From: Syntrophales bacterium
GTDB lineage: Bacteria > Desulfobacterota > Syntrophia > Syntrophales > UBA5619
Assembly: GCA_034677965.1 (NCBI GenBank)
Contig: JAXDCM010000100.1
Span: forward strand, 5,115-69,114
Reading direction: 5' to 3'
DNA: 64,000 bases
How positions within the stretch are numbered: position 1 is the first letter of the stretch; every line of letters starts with the position of its first letter. Below the pieces are notes generated by a model. It made no database searches and was not told where the DNA came from. It was given only the letters and a program-made list of their open reading frames with translations. Made by a program: the position numbers and the translations under genes. Of the stretch, positions 1-44,858 are shown one piece after another.

Positions 1-966
1 TACGATGCGCGGAAGTTCCACGAGGCGCTTCAATTCATGAGGATTGGCGGTTTGGATGTCCCGCTCGTGGGGAACATCTACGTGCTTACCTTCGGAGCGG
101 CCAAACTGATGAATCAAAACCGGATCCCCGGATGCGTCGTTACGGACAAACTCCTGACGGCGCTGGACCGGGAGAGGACCGAGCCGGATAAAGGTGTAAA
201 GGCGCGATTGCTCCGCGCCGCCCGGATGTACGCCTTCATGAAGGGGATGGGGTTCAGCGGCGTCCACATCGGCGGACACAACCTGAAATATGAAGAGGTC
301 GAAGAGATCATCGCCCGGGGGGAATCCCTCGCCCCCGTCTGGCAGGAGCTGATCGCCCATTTCAATTACCCGCAGCCGGACGGATTCTACCTCTACGAGA
401 AGGATCCGGGGACGGGTCTCAATACAGAGGTCCTGACGGAGAGAAAGGGAAGAACCCTCGATGCGCCGGTCGGCCTCTCCTATCGGAATTCCAGGTTCTT
501 CCACCGGCTGATGTTCGAGCCCGAAAAGAAGCTTTTCGGTGCAATGCGCTGGGTTTGCCGGTCTGTGAAAGGGACAAGAATCGAGGGCCTTTTTCACAAA
601 TTGGAGCATCTTTCGAAGGTCCTGCTGTTCGACTGCAAGGACTGCGGGGATTGCGCGCTGACGGATGTGGCCTACAACTGCCCTATGTCCCGATGCCCGA
701 AGCATCAGCGAAACGGGGCCTGCGGCGGCAGTTTCAACGGCTGGTGCGAGGTCCACCCGGGCAAGAGGCGCTGCATTTATGTCGAAGCGTATGCAAGATT
801 GAAGCATTACGGGGAGGAGTCGCGTCTGGACGATGCGCCCGTTCCTCCCTGCAACTGGGATTTTTATCAGACCTCCTCCTGGATCAACTTCTACCTGGGG
901 TACGATCACACGGCCCGCAGGCTGCGGATTCCGGAGGTTGAGAAGAAAGGAGAATCAAGATGCTGA
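1..966 (+). CDS. methylenetetrahydrofolate reductase-like protein (5' end outside window) with C-terminal Cys-rich MetV/MTHFR_C-like domain
   Basis: Frame 1 is open from base 1, so the true start lies upstream of the window (the ORF track begins it at 37). The translation shows the distal part of a MetF-type barrel (GFSGVHIGGHN). A Cys-rich module follows (CKDCGDCALTDVAYNCPMSRCPKHQRNGACGG..WCEV). The stop overlaps the next gene's ATG. Confidence 0.75.
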   Translation, partial: YDARKFHEALQFMRIGGLDVPLVGNIYVLTFGAAKLMNQNRIPGCVVTDKLLTALDRERTEPDKGVKARLLRAARMYAFMKGMGFSGVHIGGHNLKYEEVEEIIARGESLAPVWQELIAHFNYPQPDGFYLYEKDPGTGLNTEVLTERKGRTLDAPVGLSYRNSRFFHRLMFEPEKKLFGAMRWVCRSVKGTRIEGLFHKLEHLSKVLLFDCKDCGDCALTDVAYNCPMSRCPKHQRNGACGGSFNGWCEVHPGKRRCIYVEAYARLKHYGEESRLDDAPVPPCNWDFYQTSSWINFYLGYDHTARRLRIPEVEKKGESRC

Positions 967-1754
967 TTATTGCCGAGAGGATCAATGCGTCCCGAAAGTC
1001 GATCGCCCAGGCCATTTCGGCCGCCGACCGGGCGTTCATCCAGGGGGAGGCCAAGACGCAGGCCGAGGCCGGCGCCCATTACATCGACGTCAATGCCGGC
1101 ACCTTCGTCGGGGAGGAGACGGAAAAACTCAAATGGATCGTCGAGGCGGTTCAGGAGGTGACCGATCTGCCCCTTTCCATCGACAGCCCCGATCCGGAGG
1201 TGATTCGGGCAATGCTGCCGCTGGTCAAAAAAGCGCCGATGATCAACTCCATCACGCTGGAGCCCGCGCGGCTTAAGGGAATCCTGCCGCTCGTTGTCGA
1301 AAACAAGACCAAAATCATCGCGCTGTGCCAGTCGGAGCAGGCGATGGCCGAGACGGCGGACGACAAGGTCAGGCTTGCGGGCCTGCTCGTCGAGCGGCTG
1401 ACCGGGGCCGGCGTTCCGCTGGACGACATCCACATCGATCCGCTGGTCTATCCGCTGTCGACCAATCCGAAGTCGGCCGCCGCCACGCTCGAGGCCATCC
1501 GCCGGATCATGATCGAATTCCCCGGCGTCCATACGGTCTGCGGCCTGACGAACGTCTCCTTCGGCCTTCCCGCGAGAAAATTGGTGAATCGGGCGTTCCT
1601 GGCGGCGGCGATCGCGATGGGGCTCGATTCGGCAATCATCGATCCGACGGACAAGCTCCTCTTCGCGATGCTCAAAGCCTCAACCGTGATCGCCGGCAAG
1701 GATGACTTCTGTATGGAGTATATCTGTGCATTCCGTGAAGGGCGGGTGGAATAG
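960..1754 (+). CDS. methyltetrahydrofolate:corrinoid methyltransferase (pterin-binding, MeTr/AcsE-like; MT II type)
   Basis: 264-aa ORF with AERINASRK, IDVNAG, SIDS and GLTNVSFGLP segments typical of DHPS-like pterin-binding methyltransferases. AAGGAG lies upstream of ATG 960. The start overlaps the upstream stop. Confidence 0.85.
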   Translation: MLIIAERINASRKSIAQAISAADRAFIQGEAKTQAEAGAHYIDVNAGTFVGEETEKLKWIVEAVQEVTDLPLSIDSPDPEVIRAMLPLVKKAPMINSITLEPARLKGILPLVVENKTKIIALCQSEQAMAETADDKVRLAGLLVERLTGAGVPLDDIHIDPLVYPLSTNPKSAAATLEAIRRIMIEFPGVHTVCGLTNVSFGLPARKLVNRAFLAAAIAMGLDSAIIDPTDKLLFAMLKASTVIAGKDDFCMEYICAFREGRVE

Positions 1755-1768
1755 CGGAGGGTCGGAGA

Positions 1769-3103
1769 TCAGTCAACGTTCTGTTCGATTGACTGCTTTC
1801 GGTATTCCGTCGGGGAGATCCCCTCTTTTTTCTTAAAAACCTTGGAGAAGTGGCTGGGGTCCTGGTATCCGACTTCGAGGCAGATCTGCAACATGCTCAA
1901 CTCCCTTTGAATGAGCAGTTTTTTCGCGATCGAAATCCGGACGGAGGTGAGGTAGTCGAGGAAGGAGATTCCCATCTCTTCCCGAAACAGATGGCTGAGA
2001 TAGTAGGAATTGACTCCGACGGCCAGGGCCGTTTTTTTTAAGGAGATCTCCTCGCTGTAATGCCCCCAGATATATTCCTTGGCTTTGATGAAAAGACGGG
2101 TATGACGGATGTTCCGATTTTGATAGATGCACTCGAAGAGTTGGTCGAAGGCCTTTTTCAAGAAATAATAAAGGGTTTCCTGTGAGTCGTCCTGAGACAG
2201 GTTCTGGACATACTGGTATTTGAACCCGAGGATCTCCTCCAGGTTGGCGCCCGCCTCCACCGCCGCCCGCGCAATGATGAAAATGATCTCCAGGGCCCTG
2301 GCTTTCAGGATCCCAATATGTTCATGGCTTCGGAACAGCGTCGTTCCGAGAAGATCGTCCAGCAATTCCTTTGCCCCTTTTCGATCCCCCATTTTGATGA
2401 GCTCGATCAGTTCTTTTTCCTTGTAAAGATTCCCCCTTGCATGAAGATCGGACAGGACGACCGTCGGTTCGGCGGGTGTCTGCTGTTTGCTGATGTAAAG
2501 TTTTTCCGCCAACTGCGCCTGCTGCTCATTGATTTCATGTTCCCTTTGCAGGGACATCGAGTCCATGTTGGAGAAGTAATTGGCGATCATGAACAGAAGA
2601 TCGGCTGCGGCCTGAACCTGGCGTTCCGGAAATACGGGAATTTCCGCAAGACTTTGCCTGAGCGATTCCCCGTCGTTCGGCAAAAGCTCTTTTGCTTTGT
2701 CGACAATGCTCTGCTCGAGCAGCGGATTGAGCGGTCTGAGGAGTATCGGACCGCAAACAAAGGCGGAGAGGGGCTTCCGCCGCTGGAAAAGCGGTGCGGT
2801 GAATTCGATCATGTCCATGTGACATTGAAAGATATAGGGCTCTCCCGTTTTGATCGACATCCGGATGGCGCGATTGATTTCGTTGAGACAGTTTTCCCGC
2901 CCCAGTGAACAGCTCCTGATAGCTTGACAAAACGGGTGGCCTTTCCCTTCGATCGATCCGATTTCCTCCAATCCTTGCAACGGGAAGAGGCGGGCCTGCA
3001 TTTTGGTGGCCTGTTGAAAAGAGTCGATGATTCGCGAGAAGAGATGGTTTTCAGACAGCTCGAAGCCCGATATCCGGAGAGGGATTTCCTGATTCGAAAG
3101 CAT
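1769..3103 (-). CDS. PocR sensory domain / AraC-family HTH transcriptional regulator
   Basis: The N-terminal half has a PocR-like Cys/His pattern (HPFCQAIRS..GRENCLNE..IFQCHMDMIEFTAPL). The C-terminus has the AraC double HTH (LKKTALAVGVNSYYLSHLFREEMG..YQDPSHFSKVFKK). The start may be internal, because the first 53 nt overlap the upstream gene. Confidence 0.85.
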   Translation of the reverse strand: MLSNQEIPLRISGFELSENHLFSRIIDSFQQATKMQARLFPLQGLEEIGSIEGKGHPFCQAIRSCSLGRENCLNEINRAIRMSIKTGEPYIFQCHMDMIEFTAPLFQRRKPLSAFVCGPILLRPLNPLLEQSIVDKAKELLPNDGESLRQSLAEIPVFPERQVQAAADLLFMIANYFSNMDSMSLQREHEINEQQAQLAEKLYISKQQTPAEPTVVLSDLHARGNLYKEKELIELIKMGDRKGAKELLDDLLGTTLFRSHEHIGILKARALEIIFIIARAAVEAGANLEEILGFKYQYVQNLSQDDSQETLYYFLKKAFDQLFECIYQNRNIRHTRLFIKAKEYIWGHYSEEISLKKTALAVGVNSYYLSHLFREEMGISFLDYLTSVRISIAKKLLIQRELSMLQICLEVGYQDPSHFSKVFKKKEGISPTEYRKQSIEQNVD

Positions 3104-3776
3104 TCTTGATTCTCCCCCCTTTCATTCCGACCAATAACGCCTTCGCCTTGCTCACGCCATCCATCGCATCCATCCCGAATCCGTCCGCCCCGATGCTGTC
3201 GGCATACTCCTGGGTGATGGGCGCGCCGCCGACAAGGGTGCGGACATTTCCTTTGAGACCGGCTTTCTTCAACGCGATCAGTGTGTCTTCCATGGCGTGC
3301 ATCGTGAGGGTGTACAGACAGGAGAGCAGCAGCAAATCCGGTTTTTCCTTCCGGACGGCCTTGATAAAATTTTCAGGCGTAACATCAATTCCGAGATCAA
3401 CAACATCGAATCCGTTTGCCTGCATGAACATGAGGACAATGTTTTTGCCGATGTCGTGGACATCCCCGCTCACGGTTCCCGCCAATGCTTTTCCGACAAA
3501 GCGTGGTTGTGCCACCTTCAGTGAGGGCTGCAGGATGCCGAGGGAAAGCTTCGTTGCAATGGCAGAGATCAGCACATTCGGGATAAAGTATTCGAAGGTC
3601 TTCCATTTATCTCCTACGATTTCCATCCCGTGCAGGATTCCCTTTTCAATGATCATTGATGGGGCAAGGCCCTCCCGGAGACATTTTTCGGTGAGGGCGA
3701 CGGCTCTTTGGATATCCCCCTTCACAATCGCGCATTCCAACTGATGGATGAAGTTCATGGGATTCAGCGGATCCAA
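3051..3776 (-). CDS. corrinoid (B12-binding) protein 1
   Basis: B12-binding cap plus Rossmann domain with the DxHxxG motif (GDVHDIGKNIV) and LVGGAPIT. The start is ambiguous (TTG 3776 or ATG 3758). A C-terminal tail runs into the PocR regulator ORF. Confidence 0.85.
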   Translation of the reverse strand: MDPLNPMNFIHQLECAIVKGDIQRAVALTEKCLREGLAPSMIIEKGILHGMEIVGDKWKTFEYFIPNVLISAIATKLSLGILQPSLKVAQPRFVGKALAGTVSGDVHDIGKNIVLMFMQANGFDVVDLGIDVTPENFIKAVRKEKPDLLLLSCLYTLTMHAMEDTLIALKKAGLKGNVRTLVGGAPITQEYADSIGADGFGMDAMDGVSKAKALLVGMKGGRIKNAFESGNPSPDIGLRAV

Positions 3777-3911
3777 CCTTTCTTGTGCAGTGTGTGTTAC
3801 CTTATCCTATCCGCTCGAACAGTGAAAGCGGAAGAGGGACAAGCCCGGTTCGTATTTCAAAGAGTCCGCAACGGCTCATCGCGGAGGTTTCCGAAATGAT
3901 CACGTCGGACA

Positions 3912-4379
3912 TCAGATTTGTCGGTAACGGGAGATGCGGCGATGAATTTTCCACTTCATTTTCTGGAGCAGAAACCAGAAGTAGATCTCCTGGGGAAGGT
4001 TGGTACGGGACTTTTTCAAAGCCCGGATTCCCCGTTTCGCGGAGGCCAACGCCTCGGACGGACGGCCTGCGTCCAGATGCAGGTTGCTCAGCCGCAGATA
4101 GGTAAAGGGGGTGAGCGCCCCCTCTTGCGCACTTCTGTCGTAGCTGTCCAATGCACGCCGCAGATCCCCGATCGTTTCGTACAGGATCCCCATCTTGTTG
4201 TAAATCAGGACACGACCGGCGCTCTTGGGTGGGTAGTTCTTCAAGGCCTGGTGAAAGTAGCCCTCGGCCTCGTCAAAACGGCCTTCGTTGAACCGTTTTT
4301 GACCCAGCATCACCGGAGCGAGAGCCTCCATGGTTTCATCGGAAATGGTGGTTTTCGGGATCAGATCGTGCCAGCCCAT
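3912..4379 (-). CDS. small TPR-repeat protein
   Basis: 155-aa ORF with TPR-like helical repeats (AEGYFHQALKNYP, YNKMGILYETIGDLRRALDSYDRS, NLHLDAGRPSEALASAKRG). No clear SD, so the start is uncertain. Confidence 0.5.
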   Translation of the reverse strand: MGWHDLIPKTTISDETMEALAPVMLGQKRFNEGRFDEAEGYFHQALKNYPPKSAGRVLIYNKMGILYETIGDLRRALDSYDRSAQEGALTPFTYLRLSNLHLDAGRPSEALASAKRGIRALKKSRTNLPQEIYFWFLLQKMKWKIHRRISRYRQI

Positions 4380-4538
4380 ACGTTGTGCTCGTCATTCTTT
4401 GTTTGATTGCCGTATTTCCACCCGTTGCCCGGGACGTTGACCGGCAAGGGACTCCCCCCTTGTTGCCGGGAAAACAGCGCTAAGGAGGGAGTCCGCATCC
4501 GACCTGTGGAGTTGGTACGCACTTTCAACCCATCCCAT

Positions 4539-5894
4539 TCATTCATCCACTTCCACGACAGGCACCCGCCACAAGGCCAGCATGATGGTGCCGGCCACCA
4601 GTGCGGCGATGATCCAGTACCAGAAGGCGGCGGTCCAGCTGTAGTTGTCCACCAGCCATCCGGTGAAAATGCCGGTCATCGCGGCGCCGAGGTAGCCGAA
4701 ACCGTCAATGAAGCCTGCGGCCGAAGCCGCGGCTTTGCGACCGGCGAAGTCCTGCGCCGCATGTCCCACCATCAGCACGTGGGCACCGTAAGTGCAGAAC
4801 CCGATCACGGCCAGGTAGATCAGGCTCAGCACCCATGCCCCCTCAGGCGCATAGTAGAACAGATAGGAGAAGATGGCCAGACCGAAGAGACAGAGACAGA
4901 TCACCGGGGCCCGGCGATTTTGAAAGAATTTACCGGTGGCCCATCCGCAAAAGATGGAGCCGCACGAACCGGCGATGGGCAAAACGGCCACCGAAATGCC
5001 GGCACTGCTGATCGAGGCCCCCTGGACTTCAATCAAGAAAACCGGCGCCCAGTAGAAGAAACCGTAGCGGATGATGTCCAGTCCGAAGAACGCGATGGAA
5101 ACGCCCCAGATGCGCGGGTTGGTCAGGCATGTCTTGACCGTATAGCCGAACCCCATGTGCTTGTCCTCGGTGACACGGCAAACCGGAGCGGATGTGGGGT
5201 CGAGCGTTTTGGGTTCGGGGGCTTCACCAGCGGCGATCTTCCGAAGCTGTTCGATCGGCGGAAGCCCGACCTCCTCCGGCGCGTTGCGTAGGCGGATCAC
5301 GAAGTGGATCGAGGAGATGAGGAAGATGATGGCCGGCACCCAGAAGAGGGCGCGCCAGGTGTAGTTCGCTGCCAGATAGGAGGCCAGCAGCCAGGCGACC
5401 GCGTTTCCGATCTGGTAGCAGGAACCCATCAGGCCCATCCATTTCCCGCGCTGGGACACGGTGAACCAGTTGGCCATGGTCTTGACCTGGGGCGACCATC
5501 CCATGGACTGGAAGTAGCCGTTCAGGCCCCAGACGACCAGCATGAAGCCGAACGCGGTGGAAAAACTGAAAATGATGTTGAGCAAGGCCGAACCCACCAT
5601 TCCCACGAAGACGAGCTTGCGGGCCCCGTATTTGTCGCCCAACTGGCCGTTGACGAACTGGCCCAGCGAATACATGATGAAAAGGGCCGTGCCCAGCAGG
5701 CCCAGAAGGGTTTTGGAGTATCCGAACTCGTCGGAGAGGCCGGGCAGCGCAAAGGATATGTTGGCGCGGCACAGGTAGTATGAAGCATAGGTGAACCAGA
5801 TGGTGATGAAGATCCTGATTTGCCAGCTCTTCCAGGCGGAAAGGATATCCGTTTTACTCATTTTGCCGACATCGTATTGCGTCAATGTGCTCAT
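4539..5894 (-). CDS. MFS transporter, organophosphate:phosphate antiporter (GlpT/UhpC)-like
   Basis: 451 aa with about 12 hydrophobic spans. The N-terminal region (WQIRIFITIWFTYASYYLCRANISFALP..GQLGDKYGARK) resembles the OPA family of the MFS. Confidence 0.8.
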   Translation of the reverse strand: MSTLTQYDVGKMSKTDILSAWKSWQIRIFITIWFTYASYYLCRANISFALPGLSDEFGYSKTLLGLLGTALFIMYSLGQFVNGQLGDKYGARKLVFVGMVGSALLNIIFSFSTAFGFMLVVWGLNGYFQSMGWSPQVKTMANWFTVSQRGKWMGLMGSCYQIGNAVAWLLASYLAANYTWRALFWVPAIIFLISSIHFVIRLRNAPEEVGLPPIEQLRKIAAGEAPEPKTLDPTSAPVCRVTEDKHMGFGYTVKTCLTNPRIWGVSIAFFGLDIIRYGFFYWAPVFLIEVQGASISSAGISVAVLPIAGSCGSIFCGWATGKFFQNRRAPVICLCLFGLAIFSYLFYYAPEGAWVLSLIYLAVIGFCTYGAHVLMVGHAAQDFAGRKAAASAAGFIDGFGYLGAAMTGIFTGWLVDNYSWTAAFWYWIIAALVAGTIMLALWRVPVVEVDE

Positions 5895-5963
5895 AGATCT
5901 CCCTCCATATGCTTTCCCGAATCGGGTGGTTTGAGGATCCTTTCTGTCAATTCCGTCGAGGGT

Positions 5964-6443
5964 TTATCTGAGCTTACCCTGCAGAATGAGCTTGGGTTTG
6001 TCCTTTGCCACCAGAGCCCCCAAGGCTGCCTTTACCCCCACCGGATTAGGCATGGGTTTGCCGCCTGGATTGAGATAGATTCCCGCCGTCACAAAGCGCT
6101 TATAGATGTTCTTTTTGATCGTTCCCTTGAAATCCACTTCTCCCTTCTCGTTGACCGTGAGAACATGGGGCGCTTCGCCGATGCCTTCGAACATCAGGCT
6201 TTTCTCATTGACGAAGAAAGCGGTGTAGACGCCCTTGGGATCCAGTCCGGTGATCCGGATGGCGACATCGACGCCGCTGGCGGTGTTGATCGTGAGCGTG
6301 CCCTTTGCCTCCCCCTTGACCCCCTTGACCTGAACGAGAGCTATCTCCTTCAGGTCGCCCGATTTGGGCGGGTCTGCGGCCAGGGTCAGACCAACCCAGA
6401 CCAGCGCCAGTGCCGCGATCAAAATGATGGTGATCTTTTTCAT
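5964..6443 (-). CDS. secreted hypothetical protein (signal peptide, beta-rich)
   Basis: ATG 6443 is preceded by GGGAGG. The N-terminus MKKITIILIAALALVWVGLTLAA looks like a signal peptide. The ORF-track start at 6554 adds 37 residues with no SD. Confidence 0.6.
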   Translation of the reverse strand: MKKITIILIAALALVWVGLTLAADPPKSGDLKEIALVQVKGVKGEAKGTLTINTASGVDVAIRITGLDPKGVYTAFFVNEKSLMFEGIGEAPHVLTVNEKGEVDFKGTIKKNIYKRFVTAGIYLNPGGKPMPNPVGVKAALGALVAKDKPKLILQGKLR

Positions 6444-6614
6444 AACGACACCTCCCTTTCTAAAAAATGGATATTGCCCTATCTCCTGCCATTTTTTCGG
6501 CATCCATCGTTCCGGAATGAAATCGCCCCATTCCATCAGATCCTGCACCGCCAAGCGATCGAACGGAAAAGCCCCGGGTCAAGACGCCGTTTTCGCGTCC
6601 GGTTTAACCGGTCA

Positions 6615-7775
6615 TCAATAAACCCCATATTCGTGATAGGCCTCGAACAGAGCCGCCACATTCTCGATTGCGGTGTCCGCCTGGATATTGTGGGACGTTC
6701 CGAAAATGTAGCCACCCCCGGCCTTGCCGTTGTCCGCGGCGTACTTCACCATTTTTTTCACATCCGCCGGCGTGCCGAGCGGGAGCACCTGCTGGATGTC
6801 CATGCCGCCCTGGAAGGAGAGGTGCTTGCCGAATTCCTTTTTCAATCGTTTGATGTCCATGTTGGTGGCCTGGGGCTGCAGAGACTGGAGGCAATCCAGA
6901 CCGTTTTCAATAAACTGGGGGATGAGGGCGTAGACGTCCCCGCAGGTATGGTACATCACCTTCAGACCGTATTTATGGGCGATATCGCAGTATTTTCTGA
7001 ACCCGTCGGCGAAATACCGCTTCCACATGCCTGGACTCACGAGAGGTCCGCTCTGGCCTCCCATGTCATCGCCCATCATGAACATGTCCATCTCTTCGGC
7101 ACCGGCCTCGAAAACCTTTGGGTTGTAGTTTACGAAATAGTTGACAATATGATCGCGGATGCACTCGACGATTTTTGGGTTCGCGGCGAGGTCAATAAAG
7201 GTCTGCTGAATGCCCCGCATGTACATCATCGGCTTCAGTTGAGCCGTTCGGTCCAGCCGGTCGCCCTTGTTGAGGACGAAATACTGCGGGTGCCATTTGG
7301 CGCAGTCCTCCTTCACCTTTGAATAATCCCACCAGTCGGGGGAGGGCCAACGGGTATAGGAATTGATTTCCTCGACGGTTGTCATATGCTCCAACGGCGA
7401 CCAGGACACTTCCTTGAATGTCCCCTCGTGAGGCGTGCCCTTCCCGTAGGTCACGACTTTTCGCCTGACTCCCCAAAGGTCCTCCACCGTCCCGTCGTCG
7501 TACTTCTTGAATTCCTGACCTACGTAACTGGCCCCGTAGTTGTCGCGGACATCCACACCCAAAAACTTCAGAAGCTCTTCCTCATTCTCGCATCCCCAGT
7601 ATGCCATGCACCGCTGCTTGATCTCGGGTACCATCCAGTTGTCGATGGGAATGCGATCCGGTTCCTCGAAGTTGATTGCTTTACGGGTCCTCTGGCGGGA
7701 CGTCATTTTTTCATTCTTCGCCCGGAGTTCATTGATTCGATATCTCCGATCCTTGTAGATTTTATCCTCATTCAT
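6615..7775 (-). CDS. uroporphyrinogen decarboxylase (URO-D) family methyltransferase (MtaA/O-demethylase MT I-like)
   Basis: 386-aa ORF with URO-D/MT2-type segments (MGDDMGGQSGPLVSP, YHTCGD, IFGTSHNI). This family contains corrinoid-dependent methyltransferases. Confidence 0.8.
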   Translation of the reverse strand: MNEDKIYKDRRYRINELRAKNEKMTSRQRTRKAINFEEPDRIPIDNWMVPEIKQRCMAYWGCENEEELLKFLGVDVRDNYGASYVGQEFKKYDDGTVEDLWGVRRKVVTYGKGTPHEGTFKEVSWSPLEHMTTVEEINSYTRWPSPDWWDYSKVKEDCAKWHPQYFVLNKGDRLDRTAQLKPMMYMRGIQQTFIDLAANPKIVECIRDHIVNYFVNYNPKVFEAGAEEMDMFMMGDDMGGQSGPLVSPGMWKRYFADGFRKYCDIAHKYGLKVMYHTCGDVYALIPQFIENGLDCLQSLQPQATNMDIKRLKKEFGKHLSFQGGMDIQQVLPLGTPADVKKMVKYAADNGKAGGGYIFGTSHNIQADTAIENVAALFEAYHEYGVY

Positions 7776-7837
7776 GTCCTGCCTCCTTTTCAGTGAGCCT
7801 GGTGTTGGAAGGGTATCGTGAACCCTCGCGACATTGG

Positions 7838-8479
7838 CTATTTCGCCTGAATCAGGCTTCTTGCCATTTTAGCCGCCCGGGGCGCGTCCGGCGCATACCC
7901 GTCCGCGCCGATCAGGTTGCAGAAGGCCTGATCGATGGGGGCGCCCCCGACCAGGACCTTGATTTTATCCCGGATTCCCTGGTCTTTCAAGGCCTGGATG
8001 ACGTCCTTCATGGCCAGTCGGGTCGGCGTGTAGAGAGAGGAGAGGGCCAAGATGTCGGCTTCCTGGTATTTTGCTTCTTTCAAGAAACTGGCGGTGGAGA
8101 CGTTGACTCCGAGGTCAATCACTTTGAAGCCCGCTCCTTCCAGCACCATCGCGACGATATTTTTGCCGACGTCGTGAACGTCTCCCGCCACAGTGCCGAT
8201 CACAATGGTTCCCAGGGGCTTGTGCAGGGTTCCCTCTGACATTTTGGGCCGAAGAACCGCAAGGGCCTCCTGTGCTGCTATGGCGGCAATCATGAGTTCC
8301 GGGACGAATGCCTCGAATTTAGAGTATTTCTCTCCGATGGCGTCCAGTCCCGGAACGAGCCCCTCACTGACTATCCGGTCAGCGCTGATGTTATCGCCAA
8401 GGAGCTTTTGAACCAGCGGTTTGATTTCTTTTTTATTCCCTTTCTCCACGTACTCGGCCAATTGTTTTAACGTAGACAT
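7838..8479 (-). CDS. corrinoid (B12-binding) protein 2
   Basis: DxHxxG motif GDVHDVGKNIV, SSLYT and LVGGAPI. ATG 8479 (MSTLKQLAEYVEKG) is preceded by GGGAGGT. Confidence 0.9.
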   Translation of the reverse strand: MSTLKQLAEYVEKGNKKEIKPLVQKLLGDNISADRIVSEGLVPGLDAIGEKYSKFEAFVPELMIAAIAAQEALAVLRPKMSEGTLHKPLGTIVIGTVAGDVHDVGKNIVAMVLEGAGFKVIDLGVNVSTASFLKEAKYQEADILALSSLYTPTRLAMKDVIQALKDQGIRDKIKVLVGGAPIDQAFCNLIGADGYAPDAPRAAKMARSLIQAK

Positions 8480-9014
8480 TCCAGCACCTCCCTTGAATAA
8501 TTGATAAGGATCATCCACATTGACCCGTTTCCTTAAGCATTTGCGGCCGCCGACGCCATTCTTTCCATAGCCCGTCGGCCTGCTTTTTTCTCACCTCCTT
8601 CCCGATATTCCATTTCCACAAAAGTGGTTTCAGGGATCAACGGCTTTACACGGGAACGGGCCCCGCTGCCGCAAGAATGACGGTTGGTCGAGTTTTACAC
8701 GAAAGCCGAAGTATTGTGATGATCTGCTGGATCCGAAATTGGCCTATATGAGAAAAAAATGGGGCTGTCTATGGAAATTTTGTGAAGATTAAGGCGATAT
8801 TGCGAAAAAAAGGAAAGCAATCGGTCAAAGAATGGTTGAAGGATCTGCGGACCCCGCTAAAAAGTGCCTGGATATTTCTGCCACAAGCAAGACCGGGCCA
8901 TCATGAAAAATCTCTGCTTCTCGGTCAGGGCGAAACGTGCAATCAGGAATGGCTCGATTAGGCTTTGCCCGGTATAAAAATTTGGGGACGGATTTGAAAT
9001 CCTCCTCCATATTT

Positions 9015-10946
9015 CTATGGTTTGCCGATCGACGGCAGGTGGGGGAAGTCATCCGCCATGTGCGGAATGAACAACGCAGAGGTGAACTCCTCCTGGAACG
9101 CATCGGCCAGCGTCAATTCGAGATATTCGACTTGCCGAGCCATCTCTTCGGCCTCGCGACGTTTGTCCCGGTTTAGCAACGCGATTCTTGCCCCGTCGCC
9201 TGCCGCATTTCCGACGGACGAGACGTGGCTGATTTCGCAATCGGGAAACATCCCGAGAAACATGGCCTCCGTCTTGTCGATATAGCTCCCGAAGGCGCCC
9301 GCCAGGACCACGCGCTCCAGTTTTTCGATACCCAATTTTTTCATCAACAGTTTTGCGCCGGCATAAAGCGCGCCTTTGGCGAGCTGGACGTTCCGGATGT
9401 CCTGCTGGCTGATCGTGATCGGTTTCGCCAGAGAGGTTTCGTCCGGCCATGCAATCACGAACTCAGGCTGCCCGTCGGTCGTCAAGATGCGAGACGTCGC
9501 GAGTCCGGTCCGAAAACGACCGCTTGGATCGATAACGCCTGCCCGGTAGAGTTCGGCCACCCCGTCGATGATTCCGGAGCCGCAGATCCCCAGCGCGCCG
9601 GTGATCCGAAACTCCGGCCGCCAGCGTTCCTCTCCGATGATTTTAAAAGAAACCTCGAACGTTTCGGGATCGACACGAATCCGCTCGATGGCGCCGGGCG
9701 CCGCCCTCATGCCGAACCGGATATGGGCTCCCTCCAGGGCGGGGCCGGTGGCGCAGGATGCGGAAAGGAGTCTCTCGCGGTTTCCCAGCAGCATCTCTCC
9801 ATTGGTTCCCACATCGATGATCAGCGTCATCTCCTCCCGGCGATAGGGTTCCTCCGAGATCAGCACCCCTACGTTGTCCGCGCCGACAAAACCGGCAATA
9901 ATGGGGAGGAAGTGGACGTTGGCGGCAGGGTTGGCCTTGAGACCGAGATCGCGCGCCTTGATGTCCAGACTGCGATGTACGGCGGGTGTAAAAGGAGAGA
10001 AGCCGAGCGCGCGCGGATCGATTCCAAGCAGCAAGTGGTGCATCACCGTGTTTCCGACAATTGTGATCTCGAGAATGTCGGCCGGGGAGAGGTCGTGATC
10101 CGCGGTCACGGTCCGGAGGAGATGGTTCAGGCCATCGATGATGACTCCACGCATCTTGTCCATGCCGTCCGGGTTGTCCATCACATAGCTGATCCGTGCG
10201 ATCACATCGTCGCCGAACGTGATTTGCGGGTTCATGAACGATTCGGTGCCGACGATCCGGCCGGTACGGAGACTGCACAGGTATCCGGCCACGGTGGTCG
10301 AACCCACGTCGATGGCAAGGCCGTAAGCCTCCTCAACCGCTCCCGGAAAGACGGCGAGGATCTCCTGTTCCATCCGGACAGCCGCCGTAACGGTCCATTT
10401 TCCTTGTCGGAGGGCGCCGGGAAGGGCGAGAAGGGCGGAATAGTCCACTTCCAACCGATGTAGGCCGAAATGTTCCGCAAGGGACTCCGACAACCGTTCG
10501 AAGTCCCCGAGCGGATGGTCCAGAGTCGGGGAGGGAAGCGTCACGGTGAAGAGACGGACGGCAGGGTTCAAATGGATTTTTTTGTCGGTTGCATCCTTTT
10601 TGACCACCTGATTGCCCGTTCGGCTCTGCTCCGGCACAAAGATCAGAACATCCCCCCGGATGGTTGCCGCACAGGCCAAACGGAAGCCCTGCGATCGGTC
10701 GTATTCGGTGAGGTTTTTTTTCTCCTCTTCGGTGATCGGAGAGAGATGATCGGATAATGAATGGATTCCATGCCGGTCAAGGTTTTTCGAATCGATCCTG
10801 ATTTTGCACTTGCCGCAGCTCTTCTTTCCACCGCAGACGGACTCGATTCCGACACCCAGGATCCGTGCAGCCTCCAGAATGGTTTTTCCTTCCGGGATTT
10901 CCCCTCTCCTGCCGGAGGGCTGAAAAATCACCTGACAGGTCTTCAT
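9015..10946 (-). CDS. reductive activator of corrinoid enzymes (RACo/AcsV-like): [2Fe-2S] ferredoxin domain plus ASKHA-type ATPase
   Basis: The N-terminus has a plant-type 2Fe-2S motif (CGGKKSCGKCKI..RLACA). The body has IDVGSTTVAGYL and IDVGTNGEM phosphate-binding-like loops. ATG 10946 has AAGGAG 8 nt upstream. Confidence 0.85.
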   Translation of the reverse strand: MKTCQVIFQPSGRRGEIPEGKTILEAARILGVGIESVCGGKKSCGKCKIRIDSKNLDRHGIHSLSDHLSPITEEEKKNLTEYDRSQGFRLACAATIRGDVLIFVPEQSRTGNQVVKKDATDKKIHLNPAVRLFTVTLPSPTLDHPLGDFERLSESLAEHFGLHRLEVDYSALLALPGALRQGKWTVTAAVRMEQEILAVFPGAVEEAYGLAIDVGSTTVAGYLCSLRTGRIVGTESFMNPQITFGDDVIARISYVMDNPDGMDKMRGVIIDGLNHLLRTVTADHDLSPADILEITIVGNTVMHHLLLGIDPRALGFSPFTPAVHRSLDIKARDLGLKANPAANVHFLPIIAGFVGADNVGVLISEEPYRREEMTLIIDVGTNGEMLLGNRERLLSASCATGPALEGAHIRFGMRAAPGAIERIRVDPETFEVSFKIIGEERWRPEFRITGALGICGSGIIDGVAELYRAGVIDPSGRFRTGLATSRILTTDGQPEFVIAWPDETSLAKPITISQQDIRNVQLAKGALYAGAKLLMKKLGIEKLERVVLAGAFGSYIDKTEAMFLGMFPDCEISHVSSVGNAAGDGARIALLNRDKRREAEEMARQVEYLELTLADAFQEEFTSALFIPHMADDFPHLPSIGKP

Positions 10947-11209
10947 TTTTCGGTCTCCTTTATCCCCATGCGTTGCCTCCGAGACTGCGAACCCCATGGA
11001 TATCCGTCGTTACCGTAATTGTCGCTCGCTTAATCATGAACAAACGGCCGCCGTCAAGGTAAAAAAATCAGATGATCCCATTGGCGGCCCTACTTGGAGA
11101 GAAGAAGTTTCCTGACAGTTCGAAAACTTCCTCGGTAAATAAAGCCGTTATTCTTGCTTTGCGCGAAATGGATATGCTAAAATTATTTTGAACGTGAGCG
11201 CACCCTATC

Positions 11210-12007
11210 ATGGAAAGCCGTAAAATATCCGACAAGCCGGGATCCCCGAAAAAAAGGCGCCCCGGAAAAGATCTTGCCCGGGACATCGATCTCTATCACG
11301 AGGACCGCTTGGCGACTCTGGGGATGATGGCGGCGGGGATCGCACATGAATTGAACCAGCCGCTCAACACCATCCGGGTTGTGACGGACGGGTTTCTGTT
11401 CGGTCGCAGCGAGGGGTGGCCGCTCGATCCCGCAGAACTCTTCGACGGGTTGGAGATGATTTCCCGACAGGTGGCCAGGATGGATAAGGTGATCCGGAAT
11501 ATCCGGAATTTTGCCCGGGAAGGACGCGATTTCGAGGGCGAGTCCGTAAGGGTCAACGAGGCGATCGAAAATGTCTTCTCCATGATCGGCCGTCAGATCG
11601 AGGCCCACGGGATCCGCGTGGAGAAGGATCTGGATCCGGAGCTTCCGCGGACACGGGCTTCCCTCAACGGGCTAGAGCAGGTGGTGATGAACCTGATCGT
11701 CAACGCACGCCAGGCGCTCGATGAAAGCGCCGTCGATCCGAAGAGGCTGTGGATCCGAACGGAAAGCCGGGAGGGTACGATCCGGATCGAAGTGAGCGAC
11801 AACGGCGGCGGCGTTCCAAAGCACCTTCTGGAACGGATCTTCGATCCGTTCTTCACGACCAAAACCGCCGGCAAGGGGACAGGGCTGGGACTGAGCATCA
11901 GCCAGTCCATCATCAGCCGGTTCGGCGGCCGGATCGAAGTTCACAACAATGAAAACGGCGGCGCAACCTTTCTGGTCACCGTCCCCGCCGGGGAGGTCCT
12001 GTCTTGA
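11210..12007 (+). CDS. histidine kinase lacking any sensor domain (DHp + HATPase only)
   Basis: H box AGIAHELNQPL, N box VMNLIVNARQA, G1 DNGGGVP and G2 GKGTGLGLS. Only about 35 residues precede the H-box helix, and no TM or PAS segment is visible. Confidence 0.85.
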   Translation: MESRKISDKPGSPKKRRPGKDLARDIDLYHEDRLATLGMMAAGIAHELNQPLNTIRVVTDGFLFGRSEGWPLDPAELFDGLEMISRQVARMDKVIRNIRNFAREGRDFEGESVRVNEAIENVFSMIGRQIEAHGIRVEKDLDPELPRTRASLNGLEQVVMNLIVNARQALDESAVDPKRLWIRTESREGTIRIEVSDNGGGVPKHLLERIFDPFFTTKTAGKGTGLGLSISQSIISRFGGRIEVHNNENGGATFLVTVPAGEVLS

Positions 12008-13452
12008 ACATCCTGCTGGTGGACGATGAGGCGGACGTCCGTATAAGCATCTCCCGTTTTCTGGAGAAGCTCGGTCATGTCGTGACCTGTGCGGCAGACG
12101 GCATGGAGGCGCTGCGGGAATTCCACTTGCGGGAAATCAACCTCGTCATCACCGATATCCGGATGCCCGAAATCGACGGACTGGAGTTCCTCCGGAGGAT
12201 CAAGGTGATCGAGAAATCGCCCGTGGACGTCATCGTTGTGACCGGCCATGGGGATACAACCAGCGCGATCCGGGCGCTCAAGTACGGTGCCTTCGATTAT
12301 CTTCAGAAACCGATCGATGTCCGGGAGCTGGCCATCGTAATCGAACGTTCCGCGGCCTATCTGACCCTGCGCAACAACTACCGGCATCTGAAACAGGAAT
12401 TTCAGGAGCGGGTCCACAGCGAAACGCAGGCCGTTCGGGGAGAGGTGGAACGGCTCCGGGAAGCCTATCTGGAAGAGGTCGGACTGGACGGTCTCGGCGT
12501 CTATTCCGACGCGATGTGCCGGGTGGTCGCCCATGCGGAAAAATACAGCACGGACCGGGATATCCCGGTCCTGATCGAAGGGGAAAGCGGCACCGGCAAG
12601 GAACTGATCGCGCGGTATATCCATTTTTTCGGAGCAGGCAGCGCCATTCTCCCTTTCGTGGCGATCAACTGCGGCGCCATCAGTCAGGAACTCTTCGAAG
12701 GGGAGCTTTTCGGCCACGATCCCGGCGCCTATACGGGCGCCACCACACGTGGACAGATCGGAAAGATTGAGGCAGCCAACGGCGGAACGCTTTTCCTCGA
12801 CGAAATCGGCGAACTGCCGCCGGGCGTCCAGGTCAAACTCCTTCGGGTCCTTGAAGACAAAAAACTCTACCGACTCGGCAGCATCAAGGAAATTCCGGTG
12901 GATATCCGGATCATCTCCGCTACGAACAAGGACCTGCATCGGGAAGTGGAGGCAAAACGGTTTCGCCTCGATCTCTTCTACCGGGTGAACATGGGTCATA
13001 TCCGGATTCCCCCCCTCCGGGAAAGACAGGAGGATATCCAGCCGCTGGCGATCCGGTTTGCGGAGAGGGCCGCCCGTCGTCGGGGACTGAAGTTCGGAGG
13101 CTTCACACCGGCGGCGGAGAAGTTTCTGCACTCCTTTGACTGGCCGGGAAATGTCCGGCAACTCAAAAACGCGATGGAACGGCTGGTCTTGATGCAGGTT
13201 TCGGACCGCGCGGATCTGGAGGACTTGGCCTTCATCCGCGACGACGCGACCGTACCCGAAAAACCGGCAGCGGTCGCGCCCATTCCGGCGGACGGGGATT
13301 TTAAACTACCGGAAGCGGGGTTGGACATCGAGGCGTTCAACCGAAAGATCATCCGGATGGCGCTGGAAAAGCACGGGGGCAACCGCACCAAAACGGCGAA
13401 TTATCTGGGGATCTCGCGGCGGGTGCTGGAGGGACGTTTGAAAAAACTATGA
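12004..13452 (+). CDS. sigma-54-dependent response regulator (NtrC family: REC + AAA+ + Fis HTH)
   Basis: REC domain (ILLVDDE, ITDIRMP), Walker A GESGTGKE, a GAFTGA-like loop (DPGAYTGA), and a C-terminal HTH (RTKTANYLGISRRVLEGRLKK). The TTG start overlaps the kinase stop (TTGA). Confidence 0.9.
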   Translation: MNILLVDDEADVRISISRFLEKLGHVVTCAADGMEALREFHLREINLVITDIRMPEIDGLEFLRRIKVIEKSPVDVIVVTGHGDTTSAIRALKYGAFDYLQKPIDVRELAIVIERSAAYLTLRNNYRHLKQEFQERVHSETQAVRGEVERLREAYLEEVGLDGLGVYSDAMCRVVAHAEKYSTDRDIPVLIEGESGTGKELIARYIHFFGAGSAILPFVAINCGAISQELFEGELFGHDPGAYTGATTRGQIGKIEAANGGTLFLDEIGELPPGVQVKLLRVLEDKKLYRLGSIKEIPVDIRIISATNKDLHREVEAKRFRLDLFYRVNMGHIRIPPLRERQEDIQPLAIRFAERAARRRGLKFGGFTPAAEKFLHSFDWPGNVRQLKNAMERLVLMQVSDRADLEDLAFIRDDATVPEKPAAVAPIPADGDFKLPEAGLDIEAFNRKIIRMALEKHGGNRTKTANYLGISRRVLEGRLKKL

Positions 13453-13456
13453 GCGG

Positions 13457-13497
13457 AATGCCGGGGGATTTTTATGAAGAACGAAGCCCCCGGCATT
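13457..13497. terminator. stem-loop between convergent genes (possible bidirectional terminator)
   Basis: Perfect 11-bp stem AATGCCGGGGG / CCCCCGGCATT with a 19-nt loop, sitting between the regulator stop (13452) and the MFS stop (13519). No clear U-tract on either side. Confidence 0.45.
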
Positions 13498-13518
13498 GAA
13501 GTCGGTTCTATTGAGCCG

Positions 13519-14853
13519 TCACCCCTTTTTCCCCTCGGGCGGCTTGACGATCCAGACCAGGATCATCGATGCCAGGCACATCACCCCGGCAATGATGAAG
13601 GAGGCGATGTAATTCCCCGCCGGGTATTTGCCCGTCGAGACGACGCCCGCCGCCAGGCTTTCGAACGGAACCTCCTGGACCACTCTCATCAGTTTTGGGG
13701 CGATCCAGGGGCCGAACAGACCTGCCATCCCGTAGGCCATGAACATGCAGCCGTAGTTCACCCCCATGTTCTTCGTTCCGAAATAGTCCGCCGTCAGCGC
13801 GGGATAGACCCCCAGGAAACCCCCGAAGCAGAAGCCGACCGACATCACGCCGATGAGGAACAGCGGGAACGAGGTGAGCCAGTTCAACGCAAGCATGACC
13901 ACGCCGCTGTAAAGGAACATGATGTAGAGCGTGTTTTTCCGTCCGATGCTGTCCGAGACCTTCCCCCAGAGGATGCGTCCCAACGCGTTCATCACCGAGA
14001 TCGCCATGACGGCGGTGGTCCCTTTGGTCAGGATTTCCAGGTAGGTGTCCTTCGGGATGGTCGGAAACTGCTGGACGAGGCTCAGGATGGAGAAGGACTG
14101 CCAGATGTTGACCGTGTTCATGATGATCAGGAAGCCGGCGGAGCATCCCGCGAAGTAGGTGATCCAGAGCAGCCAGAAACGGGAGGTCTTGATCATCTCC
14201 TGCCACGTGTAATCGACACCGACGCAAGCCCCCTTAGCGCCGGTCGCGGCCGGCGGCGTCCAACCGGGGGGACAATAGCCGGCAGGAGGATTGATCATGA
14301 ACTGTGCGCCGATCATGACGATGACGAAAAAGATGATGCCCAGATAGAGGAAGGTGTTCATGACGCCGACGGAGAGGATCAGCGATTTTGCCACCGGGGC
14401 GAAGACAAGACCGCCGCCGCCGAAACCGGCAACCGCCAGGCCTGAGATGAGGCCGCGCTTGTCCGGGAACCATTTGACGCAGGTCGCGATCGGGCAGACA
14501 TAGGCGGTGCCGATCCCGAGGCCGCCGATGATCCCGAAGCCGAGCGTGAACAGGAACAGGCTGTTCGAGTAGGAGGCGAGCAGAAGGCCGAGACCGAGGA
14601 GGACGGCCCCGGACATGGCGACATAGCGCGGTCCGATCCGGTCCTGTACGCGGCCGGCAAAGATCGTTGCCAGGCCGAAGAAGAGCAGAACCAGCATGGA
14701 CGGGAGAGCCAGGTCGGTGTTGCTCCAGTCGGGAAAGCGGGCCTTGAGGCCGGGTTTGAAGACGCTGTAGATGTAGATGGCGCCGAGACTGACCTGGATC
14801 AGCAGTGCACCGACGACGATGAGCCAACGATTGAACGTTTTCCCGCCTTCCAT
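13519..14853 (-). CDS. MFS transporter, oxalate/formate antiporter (OFA) family
   Basis: 444 aa with 12 hydrophobic spans. The N-terminus NRWLIVVGALLIQVSLGAIYIYSVF is typical of the OFA family. AAGGAGG SD upstream of ATG 14853. Confidence 0.85.
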   Translation of the reverse strand: MEGGKTFNRWLIVVGALLIQVSLGAIYIYSVFKPGLKARFPDWSNTDLALPSMLVLLFFGLATIFAGRVQDRIGPRYVAMSGAVLLGLGLLLASYSNSLFLFTLGFGIIGGLGIGTAYVCPIATCVKWFPDKRGLISGLAVAGFGGGGLVFAPVAKSLILSVGVMNTFLYLGIIFFVIVMIGAQFMINPPAGYCPPGWTPPAATGAKGACVGVDYTWQEMIKTSRFWLLWITYFAGCSAGFLIIMNTVNIWQSFSILSLVQQFPTIPKDTYLEILTKGTTAVMAISVMNALGRILWGKVSDSIGRKNTLYIMFLYSGVVMLALNWLTSFPLFLIGVMSVGFCFGGFLGVYPALTADYFGTKNMGVNYGCMFMAYGMAGLFGPWIAPKLMRVVQEVPFESLAAGVVSTGKYPAGNYIASFIIAGVMCLASMILVWIVKPPEGKKG

Positions 14854-14904
14854 AGAGAAACCTCCTTTTTTTTCGGGCTCCTTAGCACGTTATGCCGGAA
14901 ATGT

Positions 14905-15471
14905 CTAACCCAATGTCCGCAGGTCTTCCGGGGTGTTCACGTTCAGGAACATCCTTCCCTCCGGATCGAAGGAATGAATGATCTCCGGGGATAGCTTCAG
15001 GAGACGGTGTGACGGATAAAAACCTGTGACCTTGAGCCGGTTCCGATCGAGCAGACCACGGATGACCGGCAGGCAGCGACGCGCATAGACGGCATGGAGA
15101 GGCTGAAGGCCGTCGGGCGTGGCCGGAACGACGATGTCATACCCGGAGGACCGCCGGGACATGTAGTCGAGAAAAGAGCGGTTCAGGAAGGGCATGTCGC
15201 AGGCTGAGACGAACATATGCTCCCCCCGGGCGAAAAAAAGACCGGTGTAGATCCCCCCGAGGGCGCCTTTGTCCGGAAGGATGTCGGTGACGATCACAGC
15301 CGGCTGATCGAGATAATCCGTCGGGTCTGTCGTGACGATGATCACCTCTTTGAAAATCGATCGAAAGAGGCGGACCGTACGGTCGATCAATCGTTCGCCG
15401 TTTATCGCGAGAAAGGCCTTGTTTTCGCCCATCCGCCGGTTTTTGCCGCCCGAAAGGATTACCCCCGTCAT
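14905..15471 (-). CDS. mobA: molybdenum cofactor guanylyltransferase
   Basis: 188 aa with an N-terminal GVILSGGKNRRMGENKAF nucleotide-binding loop and a MobA-like layout. Confidence 0.8.
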   Translation of the reverse strand: MTGVILSGGKNRRMGENKAFLAINGERLIDRTVRLFRSIFKEVIIVTTDPTDYLDQPAVIVTDILPDKGALGGIYTGLFFARGEHMFVSACDMPFLNRSFLDYMSRRSSGYDIVVPATPDGLQPLHAVYARRCLPVIRGLLDRNRLKVTGFYPSHRLLKLSPEIIHSFDPEGRMFLNVNTPEDLRTLG

Positions 15472-18173: not shown

Positions 18174-18183
18174 GGGGAGAGCC

Positions 18184-19128: not shown

Positions 19129-19248
19129 CTCCCGGGCGAGACCATTATACGTTTTTTGAGAATCATTTGTTTCTGCCGCGCTGATGGATCCATTCGCAAA
19201 ACAGTTGACCGACATCGGGCTGCAGGAATGGGCGGAGGATCGAGCATA

Positions 19249-19710: not shown

Positions 19711-19724
19711 GAGTCGGAACCGAT

Positions 19725-44856: not shown

Positions 44857-44858
44857 AA

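Follow-up and report, generated by a model that had tools for sequence, protein, structure and literature searches.

Introduction

Among the closest described counterparts of the locus examined here are the O-demethylase and haloalkane systems MtvABC, OdmABD, VdmB, MtoABCD and CdmBCA. In these systems a methyltransferase of the uroporphyrinogen decarboxylase (URO-D) superfamily (MT I), a small corrinoid protein with a DxHxxG motif, a pterin-binding methyltransferase (MT II) that hands methyl groups on to tetrahydrofolate (THF), and an activase of the RACo type act together, and the methyl group enters the folate branch. We analyzed a 64,000-nucleotide stretch of DNA from Syntrophales bacterium (GenBank assembly GCA_034677965.1, contig JAXDCM010000100.1, positions 5,115 to 69,114 of the forward strand), called the window below, the left end of which carries an island with all of these parts. 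The described systems, found chiefly in Bacillota and Archaea, include no dedicated transporter of the organophosphate:phosphate antiporter (OPA) family, whereas the island encodes such a transporter in a member of the Desulfobacterota. Our best explanation of the whole, which we hold with moderate confidence, is that the island is a conserved catabolic module that moves methyl groups from an imported anionic compound, likely phosphate-bearing, to THF. Judged by sequence comparison, what is new here is a URO-D subfamily of candidate MT I with an unusual predicted metal site, an apparently obligatory OPA-type transporter, and a distribution whose centre lies in Desulfobacterota and Nitrospirota and not in Bacillota or methanogens.

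Several other corrinoid systems resemble the island in part. The Methanosarcina cluster mtpCAP has the same arrangement of a corrinoid protein, a URO-D-family methyltransferase and a transporter of the major facilitator superfamily (MFS) (PMC7374477). It differs from the island, as do MtaA, MtbA and MtsA, in that the methyl acceptor is coenzyme M instead of THF reached through a pterin-binding MT II, and in that the third zinc ligand is Cys where the window protein has His; the host of the island is, moreover, bacterial. MthBCAK of Eubacterium limosum shares a corrinoid protein, an MT II, the THF route and a phosphorylated donor, and is the sole organophosphate precedent, since phosphocholine is a proven methyl donor of MthBCA (PMC12155760). 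However, MthB, the MT I of that system, is a member of the MttB superfamily, and the substrate is produced intracellularly by the kinase MthK instead of entering through an OPA transporter; Pfam scans found neither an MttB-superfamily nor a kinase domain among the island genes. In the acetogen methanol cluster mtaR-mtaC1-...-mtaB-mtaC2-mtaA, a PocR/AraC regulator gene likewise lies by one corrinoid protein gene, with a second in the catalytic core (PMC13602510), but the MT I, MtaB, has another fold, the substrate is neutral and there is no transporter. A methanol system was rejected for the island, which has no MtaB. The type 1 mlp clusters described by Kountz and Balskus, widespread in anaerobes, also combine URO-D-family proteins, a corrinoid protein and a RACE/RACo activase (PMC10418091). 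Their Mlp paralogues, two or three in number, share about 30% identity with MtbA and have His-Cys-Cys ligands, and a THF methyltransferase is missing from the clusters. Because only one URO-D gene occurs in the window and an MT II is present, identity with an mlp cluster was rejected on composition. None of the characterised operons with which we compared the locus is its orthologue, and mlp, mta, mtp and mth differ from it in MT I type or in composition.

Gene order and conservation of the module

A preliminary description, made from the letters of the window, had read the island as a complete three-component corrinoid methyl-transfer system with an unassigned methyl donor in a diderm bacterium. 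All of the genes that it listed were found at or near the positions it gave when open reading frames (ORFs) were listed and scanned against Pfam and NCBIfam, the domain identities of all parts were confirmed, and the reading is upheld. The end of an MTHFR gene and the MT II gene lie on the + strand, and the remaining island genes converge on them from the right on the − strand, in the order RACo, a 535-bp spacer, corrinoid protein 2 (CoP2), the URO-D protein, an exported protein, the MFS transporter, a tetratricopeptide repeat (TPR) protein, corrinoid protein 1 (CoP1) and a PocR/AraC regulator. The host is a population of Syntrophales (Desulfobacterota), whose URO-D protein shares 98% identity with that of the metagenome-assembled genome (MAG) AnMBR.bin353 from an anaerobic membrane bioreactor (locus L001; related loci carry such numbers below), and the metagenome contigs L021–L024 encode a copy 100% identical to that of the window.

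To place the island among its relatives, we surveyed 95 loci with a URO-D protein at least 60% identical to that of the window. These loci, in MAGs of Desulfobacterota and Nitrospirota and in metagenomes, were gathered by scanning metagenomes, by looking up exact proteins and from species-representative genomes. Neighbouring genes were scored by tblastn, and each denominator counts the loci whose contig reaches far enough. A corrinoid protein was encoded directly upstream of the URO-D protein in 78 of 81 loci and a pterin-binding MT II directly downstream in 64 of 81; a GlpT-like OPA-family MFS transporter followed within 3 kb in 48 of 50, and RACo was present in 29 of 34. Because this order recurs in about 95 loci, it exceeds what chance would give, and because the module is widespread, it represents a gene family and not an oddity of one genome. 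The URO-D protein is 65–100% identical across phyla, and the module is compact and strongly conserved. Named hosts were MAGs of Syntrophales, Syntrophobacteraceae, Desulfobacterales, Deferrisomatales, Thermodesulfobacteriota and Nitrospirota.

Two architectures were distinguished. In architecture A (URO-D protein at least 77% identical to that of the window), the genes encode a corrinoid protein, URO-D, MT II, the exported protein, MFS, RACo and TPR. Architecture B (URO-D protein 65–73% identical) comprises a corrinoid protein, URO-D, MT II, MFS, RACo, CoP1 and PocR, without the exported protein. In type A loci, a protein of about 250 amino acids (aa) weakly similar to the S-adenosylmethionine-binding activation domain of MetH is often encoded after the TPR gene, and a CobW/ZigA-like metallochaperone GTPase is often encoded nearby. 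Genes of these two kinds were seen in L015 (16438–18167), L020 (11512–12276), L016 (13976–14707) and many type A loci, and both are missing from the window. Some contigs carry further methyltransferase genes: L014 has, next to the module, a second set (7006–8706) with a corrinoid protein and an MtaA/CmuA-like URO-D protein (92 bits with TIGR01463), and L012 has an mlp-like pair of URO-D genes with RACo (3913–9059).

The URO-D protein

The candidate substrate:corrinoid methyltransferase (MT I) is a 386-aa protein of the URO-D superfamily (6615–7775, − strand), in which only residues 183–383 match PF01208 (E 1.7e-22). Its placement was assessed by model bit scores and by E-values against PDB sequences, both of which are proxies for phylogeny, with CdmB standing in for MtvB, OdmB, VdmB and MtoB. 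The protein does not group with true uroporphyrinogen decarboxylases (HemE), one of the outcomes that the preliminary description had named as fatal to its reading: the HemE model TIGR01464 gave 26.2 bits against a cut-off of 302.95, and HemE structures matched at E-values of at least 0.0017. Nor does it belong with MtaA and CmuA (TIGR01463, 49.6 bits against 235.4; PRK06252, 55.1 against 244). CdmB, a zinc-free close relative of the O-demethylases MtvB, OdmB, VdmB and MtoB (PMC13222342), matched only residues 308–386 (79 aa) of the window protein, which in contrast keeps an HxC motif (structure 9rui; E 0.0086 with the single sequence, 0.014 with a profile). Since the match to this relative is so weak, we place the window protein outside the O-demethylase clade. 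The other outcome named as fatal, synteny with a characterised demethylase operon of known substrate, did not arise either among the operons compared.

The best structural counterpart is MtaA. In the PDB sequence search it matched at E 1e-5 with the family profile, a marginal value like those of HemE and CdmB. An AlphaFold model of the protein (AF2; pLDDT 83) has a URO-D-type barrel, with MtaA (4ay7) as the best fold match (TM 0.63/0.71). In the profile alignment, H276-x-C278 (6936–6950) corresponds to MtaA's HxC zinc motif, and where MtaA has its third zinc Cys, the family has an invariant His, H362; the ligand set is thus not His-Cys-Cys. In the URO-D superfamily, His-Cys-Cys goes with S- and Se-methyltransferases and loss of a Cys ligand with O-methyltransferases (PMC10418091). 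By this alignment, H276, C278 and H362 probably form a zinc site in the window protein. A loop with the sequence NKGDRLDR (residues 169–176; 7248–7271) is an insertion of the subfamily, with invariant R173 and R176, and is followed by an invariant K181; in a set of 128 aligned sequences (the window protein and 127 representatives of the broader family), 94 lack the loop and the Lys. The loop comes directly after the barrel strand at residues 166–169 and therefore lies, in the predicted structure, on the catalytic face, where its Arg and Lys residues suggest an anionic substrate.

The family is a tight set of 386-aa proteins, and the nearest representatives outside it are only 45% identical. 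Relatives at 37–45% identity (L013 8001–9071, L017 7944–9026 and contigs of P0123) are a large uncharacterised sister group. They share the invariant His of the H-x-C motif; of the 128 sequences, 105 have C and 23 have D at the Cys position. Their neighbours include a BNR-repeat protein (L017), one protein with an FGE-sulfatase domain and one radical SAM protein (L013), and a CBM9/NHL protein (a P0123 contig). A cluster look-up for names of more distant URO-D relatives yielded nothing informative. Corrinoid genes are absent around the sister group, and the methyltransferase role is therefore tied to the 386-aa subfamily and not to the whole clade. In the minimal modules (L009, L010 and L019), the URO-D protein is the sole MT I candidate. 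From synteny and motifs we infer that it is the MT I that passes the methyl group to Co(I) of CoP2. A decarboxylase or other enzyme that just happens to neighbour a corrinoid system whose MT I lies elsewhere is scarcely credible, despite the sister group and the restriction of the Pfam match to the C-terminal half, given that in most of 81 loci only tens of bases separate the gene from those for the corrinoid protein and MT II on either side, that minimal modules hold no other candidate, and that the HemE score is so low.

The transporter and the exported protein

The MFS transporter (4539–5894, − strand), the proposed importer of the methyl donor, belongs to the OPA family (TIGR00881, E 2e-76; glpT model, E 4e-71). 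Its match to an aromatic-acid:H+ symporter model was far weaker (E 1.8e-24). It fell below all of the equivalog cut-offs tested (GlpT, UhpT, UhpC and PgtP), for example with 240 bits against 633 for glpT and 161 against 750 for PgtP. The best PDB match was GlpT (1pw4), both for the window protein (E 7.9e-47) and for a second MFS subtype (E 2.8e-44). R45 and R269 of GlpT, which we take to be its phosphate-binding arginines, are aligned and conserved in both subtypes, and the neighbouring tyrosines are also kept. Besides scoring below the cut-offs, the transporter differs from GlpT, UhpT and PgtP in having Q for K80 and Y for H165, and it was never accompanied by glycerol or sugar-phosphate genes in these loci. 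The preliminary description held that nothing in the locus identifies the substrate. The substrate itself can still only be deduced, but the near-constant presence of this transporter is a hint that had been missed.

Only two of these 50 loci lack the MFS gene. One, L018, has an orphan URO-D gene. In the other, L016, the MFS and exported protein genes are replaced (2792–9212) by an Opp/Nik-type ABC importer (SBP_bac_5, two ATPases and two permeases) and a class-III metallophosphodiesterase. The latter is SpdA/CpdA-like (E 9e-43), and the genes are co-oriented with and directly upstream of those for the corrinoid protein, URO-D, MT II and RACo. No conserved enzyme for processing a demethylated organic product adjoined the module in the loci inspected, which fits an exported or inorganic product.

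Next to the transporter gene lies that of a 159-aa exported (periplasmic) protein, a predicted beta-sandwich (5964–6443, − strand), with the signal peptide MKKITIILIAALALVWVGLTLA/AD read from the sequence. It is confined to architecture A and was present in 30 of 50 loci. Pfam and NCBIfam gave no match to it, and the 170 homologues found are all unnamed. Its AF2 model (pLDDT 80) gave weak matches to folds like that of Cu/Zn superoxide dismutase (E at least 0.013, TM 0.35–0.5). Assignment as such an enzyme was rejected, because these matches are weak and the dismutase histidines are missing, with only one near-invariant His.

MT II and the folate branch

The MT II of the window (960–1754, + strand) is a pterin-binding TIM-barrel methyl-corrinoid:THF methyltransferase (PF00809, E 7e-22). 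It scored 321.7 bits with NF005719 (cut-off 259) and only 126 bits with the canonical AcsE model (cut-off 370). Together with the corrinoid proteins and the four-domain, ATP-dependent activase described below, it supplies the parts expected of a three-component methyl-X:THF system. In most relatives, an MT II 36–46% identical to this protein is encoded directly after the URO-D protein. Only 171 nt remain at that place in the window. The window copy has lost the usual MT II and relies on the 960–1754 paralogue as a lineage-specific substitute. An MT II of the window type lies beside the module also in L003, L073, L094 and L099.

The MT II gene is preceded by the end of a gene that begins upstream of the window (1–966, + strand). 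This segment specifies the final 321 residues of an MTHFR that carries a fused C-terminal DUF5981 domain (MetV-like; PF12225, E 2.4e-28 with the frame-1 translation). The counterpart in L001 is 88% identical to the MTHFR part in the window; its upstream portion matches PF02219 (MTHFR, E 6.5e-19) and is preceded by FolD and formate-THF ligase (Fhs). Beyond what corresponds to the left edge of the window, L001 thus has the full MTHFR, FolD and Fhs, and in the lineage of the window the module therefore adjoins a whole methyl branch for conversion of methyl-THF to formate. The island as first delimited contains every part listed for it, but its left end continues past the window start. In L001 (16816–18405), the MTHFR-DUF5981 gene is split into ORFs of 377 and 140 aa, an apparent frameshift or assembly error; the frame in the window is unbroken.

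Corrinoid proteins and the PocR/AraC regulator

CoP2, the proposed methyl carrier of the core operon (7838–8479, − strand; PF02607 and PF02310), has the motif DVHDVG at 8165–8182. Its ORF reaches 8518, with a likely ATG at 8479 behind GGAGG, and its gene ends 62 nt upstream of the URO-D gene. CoP1 (3051–3776, − strand, likely start 3758) matches the same two Pfam families and has DVHDIG at 3447–3464. The two proteins are 38% identical, and both are small DxHxxG corrinoid proteins with a B12-binding_2 cap and a Rossmann B12-binding domain. The preliminary description had counted them as equals. Both are indeed present, but their roles are not equivalent: CoP2 partners the URO-D protein, and the CoP1 gene overlaps that of the regulator.

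The regulator (1769–3103, − strand) has a PocR sensor (PF10114, E 2.6e-29) and an AraC helix-turn-helix domain (PF12833, E 8e-25), and in the window the start of its gene overlaps the end of the CoP1 gene by 53 nt. CoP1 always adjoins the PocR/AraC gene in related loci, and the pair was present in 16 of 34 long loci. The overlap ranges from 14 to 71 nt across the window (1769–3776, − strand), L015 (5199–7176), L016 (29–1985) and L019 (10135–12109), and the pair moves as a unit. Regulators of the PocR/AraC type are known to activate corrinoid methyltransferase operons. One of them is MtaR of E. limosum, whose cluster opens with mtaR-mtaC1 while MtaC2 belongs to the catalytic core (PMC13602510). 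By analogy with this layout, which the CoP1-PocR pair mirrors, the arrangement suggests a regulatory role for CoP1 in place of bulk methyl transfer, and the pair may be a transcription switch coupled to a B12 protein.

RACo, the TPR protein and the spacer

The reductive activator (9015–10997, − strand) is of the RACo type, with a [2Fe-2S] ferredoxin domain and an ASKHA ATPase (RACo_C_ter, E 5e-97; Raco_middle, E 5e-54; RACo_linker, E 9e-23; Fer2, E 7e-9). It scored 477 bits with an AcsV-like model and has a four-Cys [2Fe-2S] motif (Cys55/61/64/109). The small TPR protein (155 aa; 3912–4379, − strand; TPR_2, E 7.6e-12) has an orthologue after RACo in 19 of 34 long loci; the + strand ORF at 3918–4406 is its shadow.

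The 535-bp spacer between RACo and the CoP2-URO-D operon (8480–9014) holds no ORF of note and is presumably a promoter region. No Rfam match with E ≤ 0.1, to a riboswitch or other RNA, was obtained in the spacer or in positions 1–16000. No sigma-54 consensus was found in the module spacers, and the count over the whole window was under the shuffled mean. Sigma-70-like promoters and terminators were no commoner than in shuffled sequence.

Neighbouring genes

A histidine kinase and a sigma-54-dependent response regulator are encoded divergently from RACo (11210–13452, + strand). This pair was rejected as a part of the module, because it adjoins the module only in the lineage of the window (L001) and the relevant spacers hold no sigma-54 site. 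Further to the right (16989–21245, + strand) are genes for an M24 creatinase/prolidase-like peptidase, a D-2-hydroxyacid dehydrogenase and a 658-aa TctA-family transporter, none of which showed a connection with the module in other loci. The arn-like cluster for lipid A aminoarabinose (41963–47802, + strand) encodes a PMT-family transferase, a DegT aminotransferase, a GT2 glycosyltransferase, a formyltransferase and an epimerase/dehydratase; together with the match to Syntrophales MAGs, it bears out a diderm host. An 806-aa DAO/FAO_M/GCV_T/GCV_T_C fusion (58035–60455, + strand) resembles dimethylglycine or sarcosine dehydrogenase, a second type of THF-linked demethylase, in what is presumed to be a strict anaerobe.

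Discussion

We propose the following sequence of events for the module. The OPA-family transporter would import the methyl donor, maybe in exchange for the demethylated product or phosphate, by analogy with its family. The URO-D protein would bind and activate the donor through the predicted His276/Cys278/His362 zinc site and the Arg/Lys loop, and would pass the methyl group to Co(I) of CoP2. MT II, whose domain identity is clear, would hand it to THF, and RACo, equally clear in its domains, would use ATP to re-reduce corrinoid protein that has been oxidised to Co(II). Methyl-THF would then be oxidised to formate by the adjoining MTHFR, FolD and Fhs, an adjacency seen in L001 and a flux that would suit a syntroph. 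The PocR/AraC regulator and the coupled CoP1 would control expression. In its general form, namely catabolic methyl-X:THF transfer with ATP-dependent reactivation that feeds the folate branch of a syntroph, we regard this mechanism as very probable.

The nature of the methyl donor is a more tentative matter. From the gene content, an organophosphate, such as a methyl phosphate ester or a phosphocholine-like compound, is the donor that we favour, with less than even confidence; the OPA-type transporter, the phosphodiesterase of L016, the lack of a product-processing gene and the phosphocholine precedent all point in this direction. The fuller proposal, that a new URO-D branch with a His-Cys-His zinc site demethylates a phosphate-bearing donor (methyl phosphate ester, phosphocholine or a related phospho-amine) supplied by GlpT-like antiport, is doubtful when taken as a whole. 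Methylphosphonate was judged an unlikely donor on chemical grounds, as a poor leaving group, and methylarsonate was judged unlikely on account of its trace abundance. A preprint followed as a lead on arsenic demethylation (10.64898/2026.08.27.747368) covers only the standard mta, mtt, mts and mtv genes and thus offers no link.

Several points weigh against a phosphate-bearing donor and against the wider proposal. The substitutions at GlpT positions K80 and H165 do not favour a phosphate substrate, and the OPA family also carries phosphonates, so that membership is no proof of a phosphate substrate. The link to a phosphodiesterase comes from a single locus. The sister group of the URO-D family sits without corrinoid context, which means that the wider clade is not uniformly one of methyltransferases. 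The homologues seen all come from MAGs or metagenomes, with no cultured organism among the matches listed. To our knowledge, a His-Cys-His zinc site has no characterised precedent in the URO-D superfamily, the URO-D-type MT I enzymes described so far use O-, S-, Se- and halide-methyl donors and not phosphate esters or quaternary amines, and natural pools of methyl phosphate are undocumented.

The strongest competitor is O-demethylation of methoxylated carboxylic acids, aromatic or aliphatic (such as vanillate, syringate or methoxyacetate), in which the MFS protein would import the acid, the URO-D protein would cleave the methyl ether, and the hydroxylated product would be released or used elsewhere. 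Among bacterial systems with this layout, three-component O-demethylases of the URO-D type are the most frequent, and lignin-derived methoxy compounds are plentiful in the soils, sediments and digesters where the module occurs. An anionic substrate would suit the Arg/Lys loop, the His in place of the third Cys agrees with the rule that replacement of a zinc-ligand Cys goes with O- and not S-methyl substrates (PMC10418091), and a gene for an iron-containing alcohol dehydrogenase lies divergently upstream in L015 and L020. However, the protein falls outside the O-demethylase clade, with CdmB (PMC13222342) reaching only its last 79 residues (E 0.009–0.014), and the transporter matches the OPA model far better than the aromatic-acid symporter model. 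The L016 variant, moreover, has a phosphodiesterase, and genes for aromatic-ring catabolism are not conserved near the module. We therefore consider an O-demethylase unlikely.

An S-demethylase for an anionic methylthio compound similar to methylmercaptopropionate would make the module a bacterial, THF-linked counterpart of Methanosarcina mtpCAP, with which it shares the set of corrinoid protein, URO-D-family methyltransferase and MFS transporter (PMC7374477; a likeness of gene arrangement). The HxC zinc motif is common to thiol methyltransferases, MtaA is the best structural match, and the anionic substrate would require a transporter. Nevertheless, S- and Se-methyltransferases of the superfamily have His-Cys-Cys (PMC10418091), whereas the third ligand position is an invariant His here, and the MtaA/CmuA model gave some 50 bits against a cut-off of 235. 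Sulfur-metabolism genes are not conserved near the module. Methylmercaptopropionate is mainly a marine compound, but the module was found in a wastewater bioreactor and in a MAG labelled ‘RBG’, a label that we take to denote a terrestrial subsurface sample. Such an S-demethylase is accordingly quite unlikely.

The module might also run in reverse, taking the methyl group of methyl-THF from the Wood-Ljungdahl methyl branch through MT II, the corrinoid protein and the URO-D protein to an acceptor (thiol, sulfide, selenide or metalloid), with the product exported by the MFS protein. MtaA, whose fold and HxC motif the URO-D protein shares, itself works in that direction, the window module adjoins methyl-branch genes, and corrinoid methyl transfers are reversible in vitro, an Mlp having been assayed in reverse (PMC10418091). 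Against this, the adjacency to the methyl branch is limited to the lineage of the window, most loci encoding an MT II of their own but lacking folate genes; OPA transporters exchange or import anionic nutrients; the catabolic mta operon has an activator of the same PocR/AraC type (PMC13602510); and genes for acceptor synthesis are absent. Operation in this direction is highly improbable.

In anoxic habitats, corrinoid methyltransferase systems determine the range of methylated compounds available to acetogenesis, methanogenesis and sulfate reduction, and the catalogue of their substrates is still expanding, with phosphocholine added in 2025 and chloromethane in 2026. If the donor is indeed an organophosphate, the module would tie anaerobic C1 metabolism to organic-phosphorus cycling and would widen the chemistry of URO-D-type MT I enzymes. 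If, further, a phosphate donor is demethylated at a His-Cys-His site, the module would reveal an unrecognised methylotrophic niche, linked to the turnover of organic phosphorus, for sulfate-reducing and syntrophic Desulfobacterota and Nitrospirota. Even with a conventional substrate, the set of corrinoid protein, URO-D, MT II and OPA-type MFS genes would serve as a marker of methylotrophy in Desulfobacterota and Nitrospirota, which are now scored as non-methylotrophic in metagenome surveys that seek only mtaB, mttB, mtsA or mtvB.

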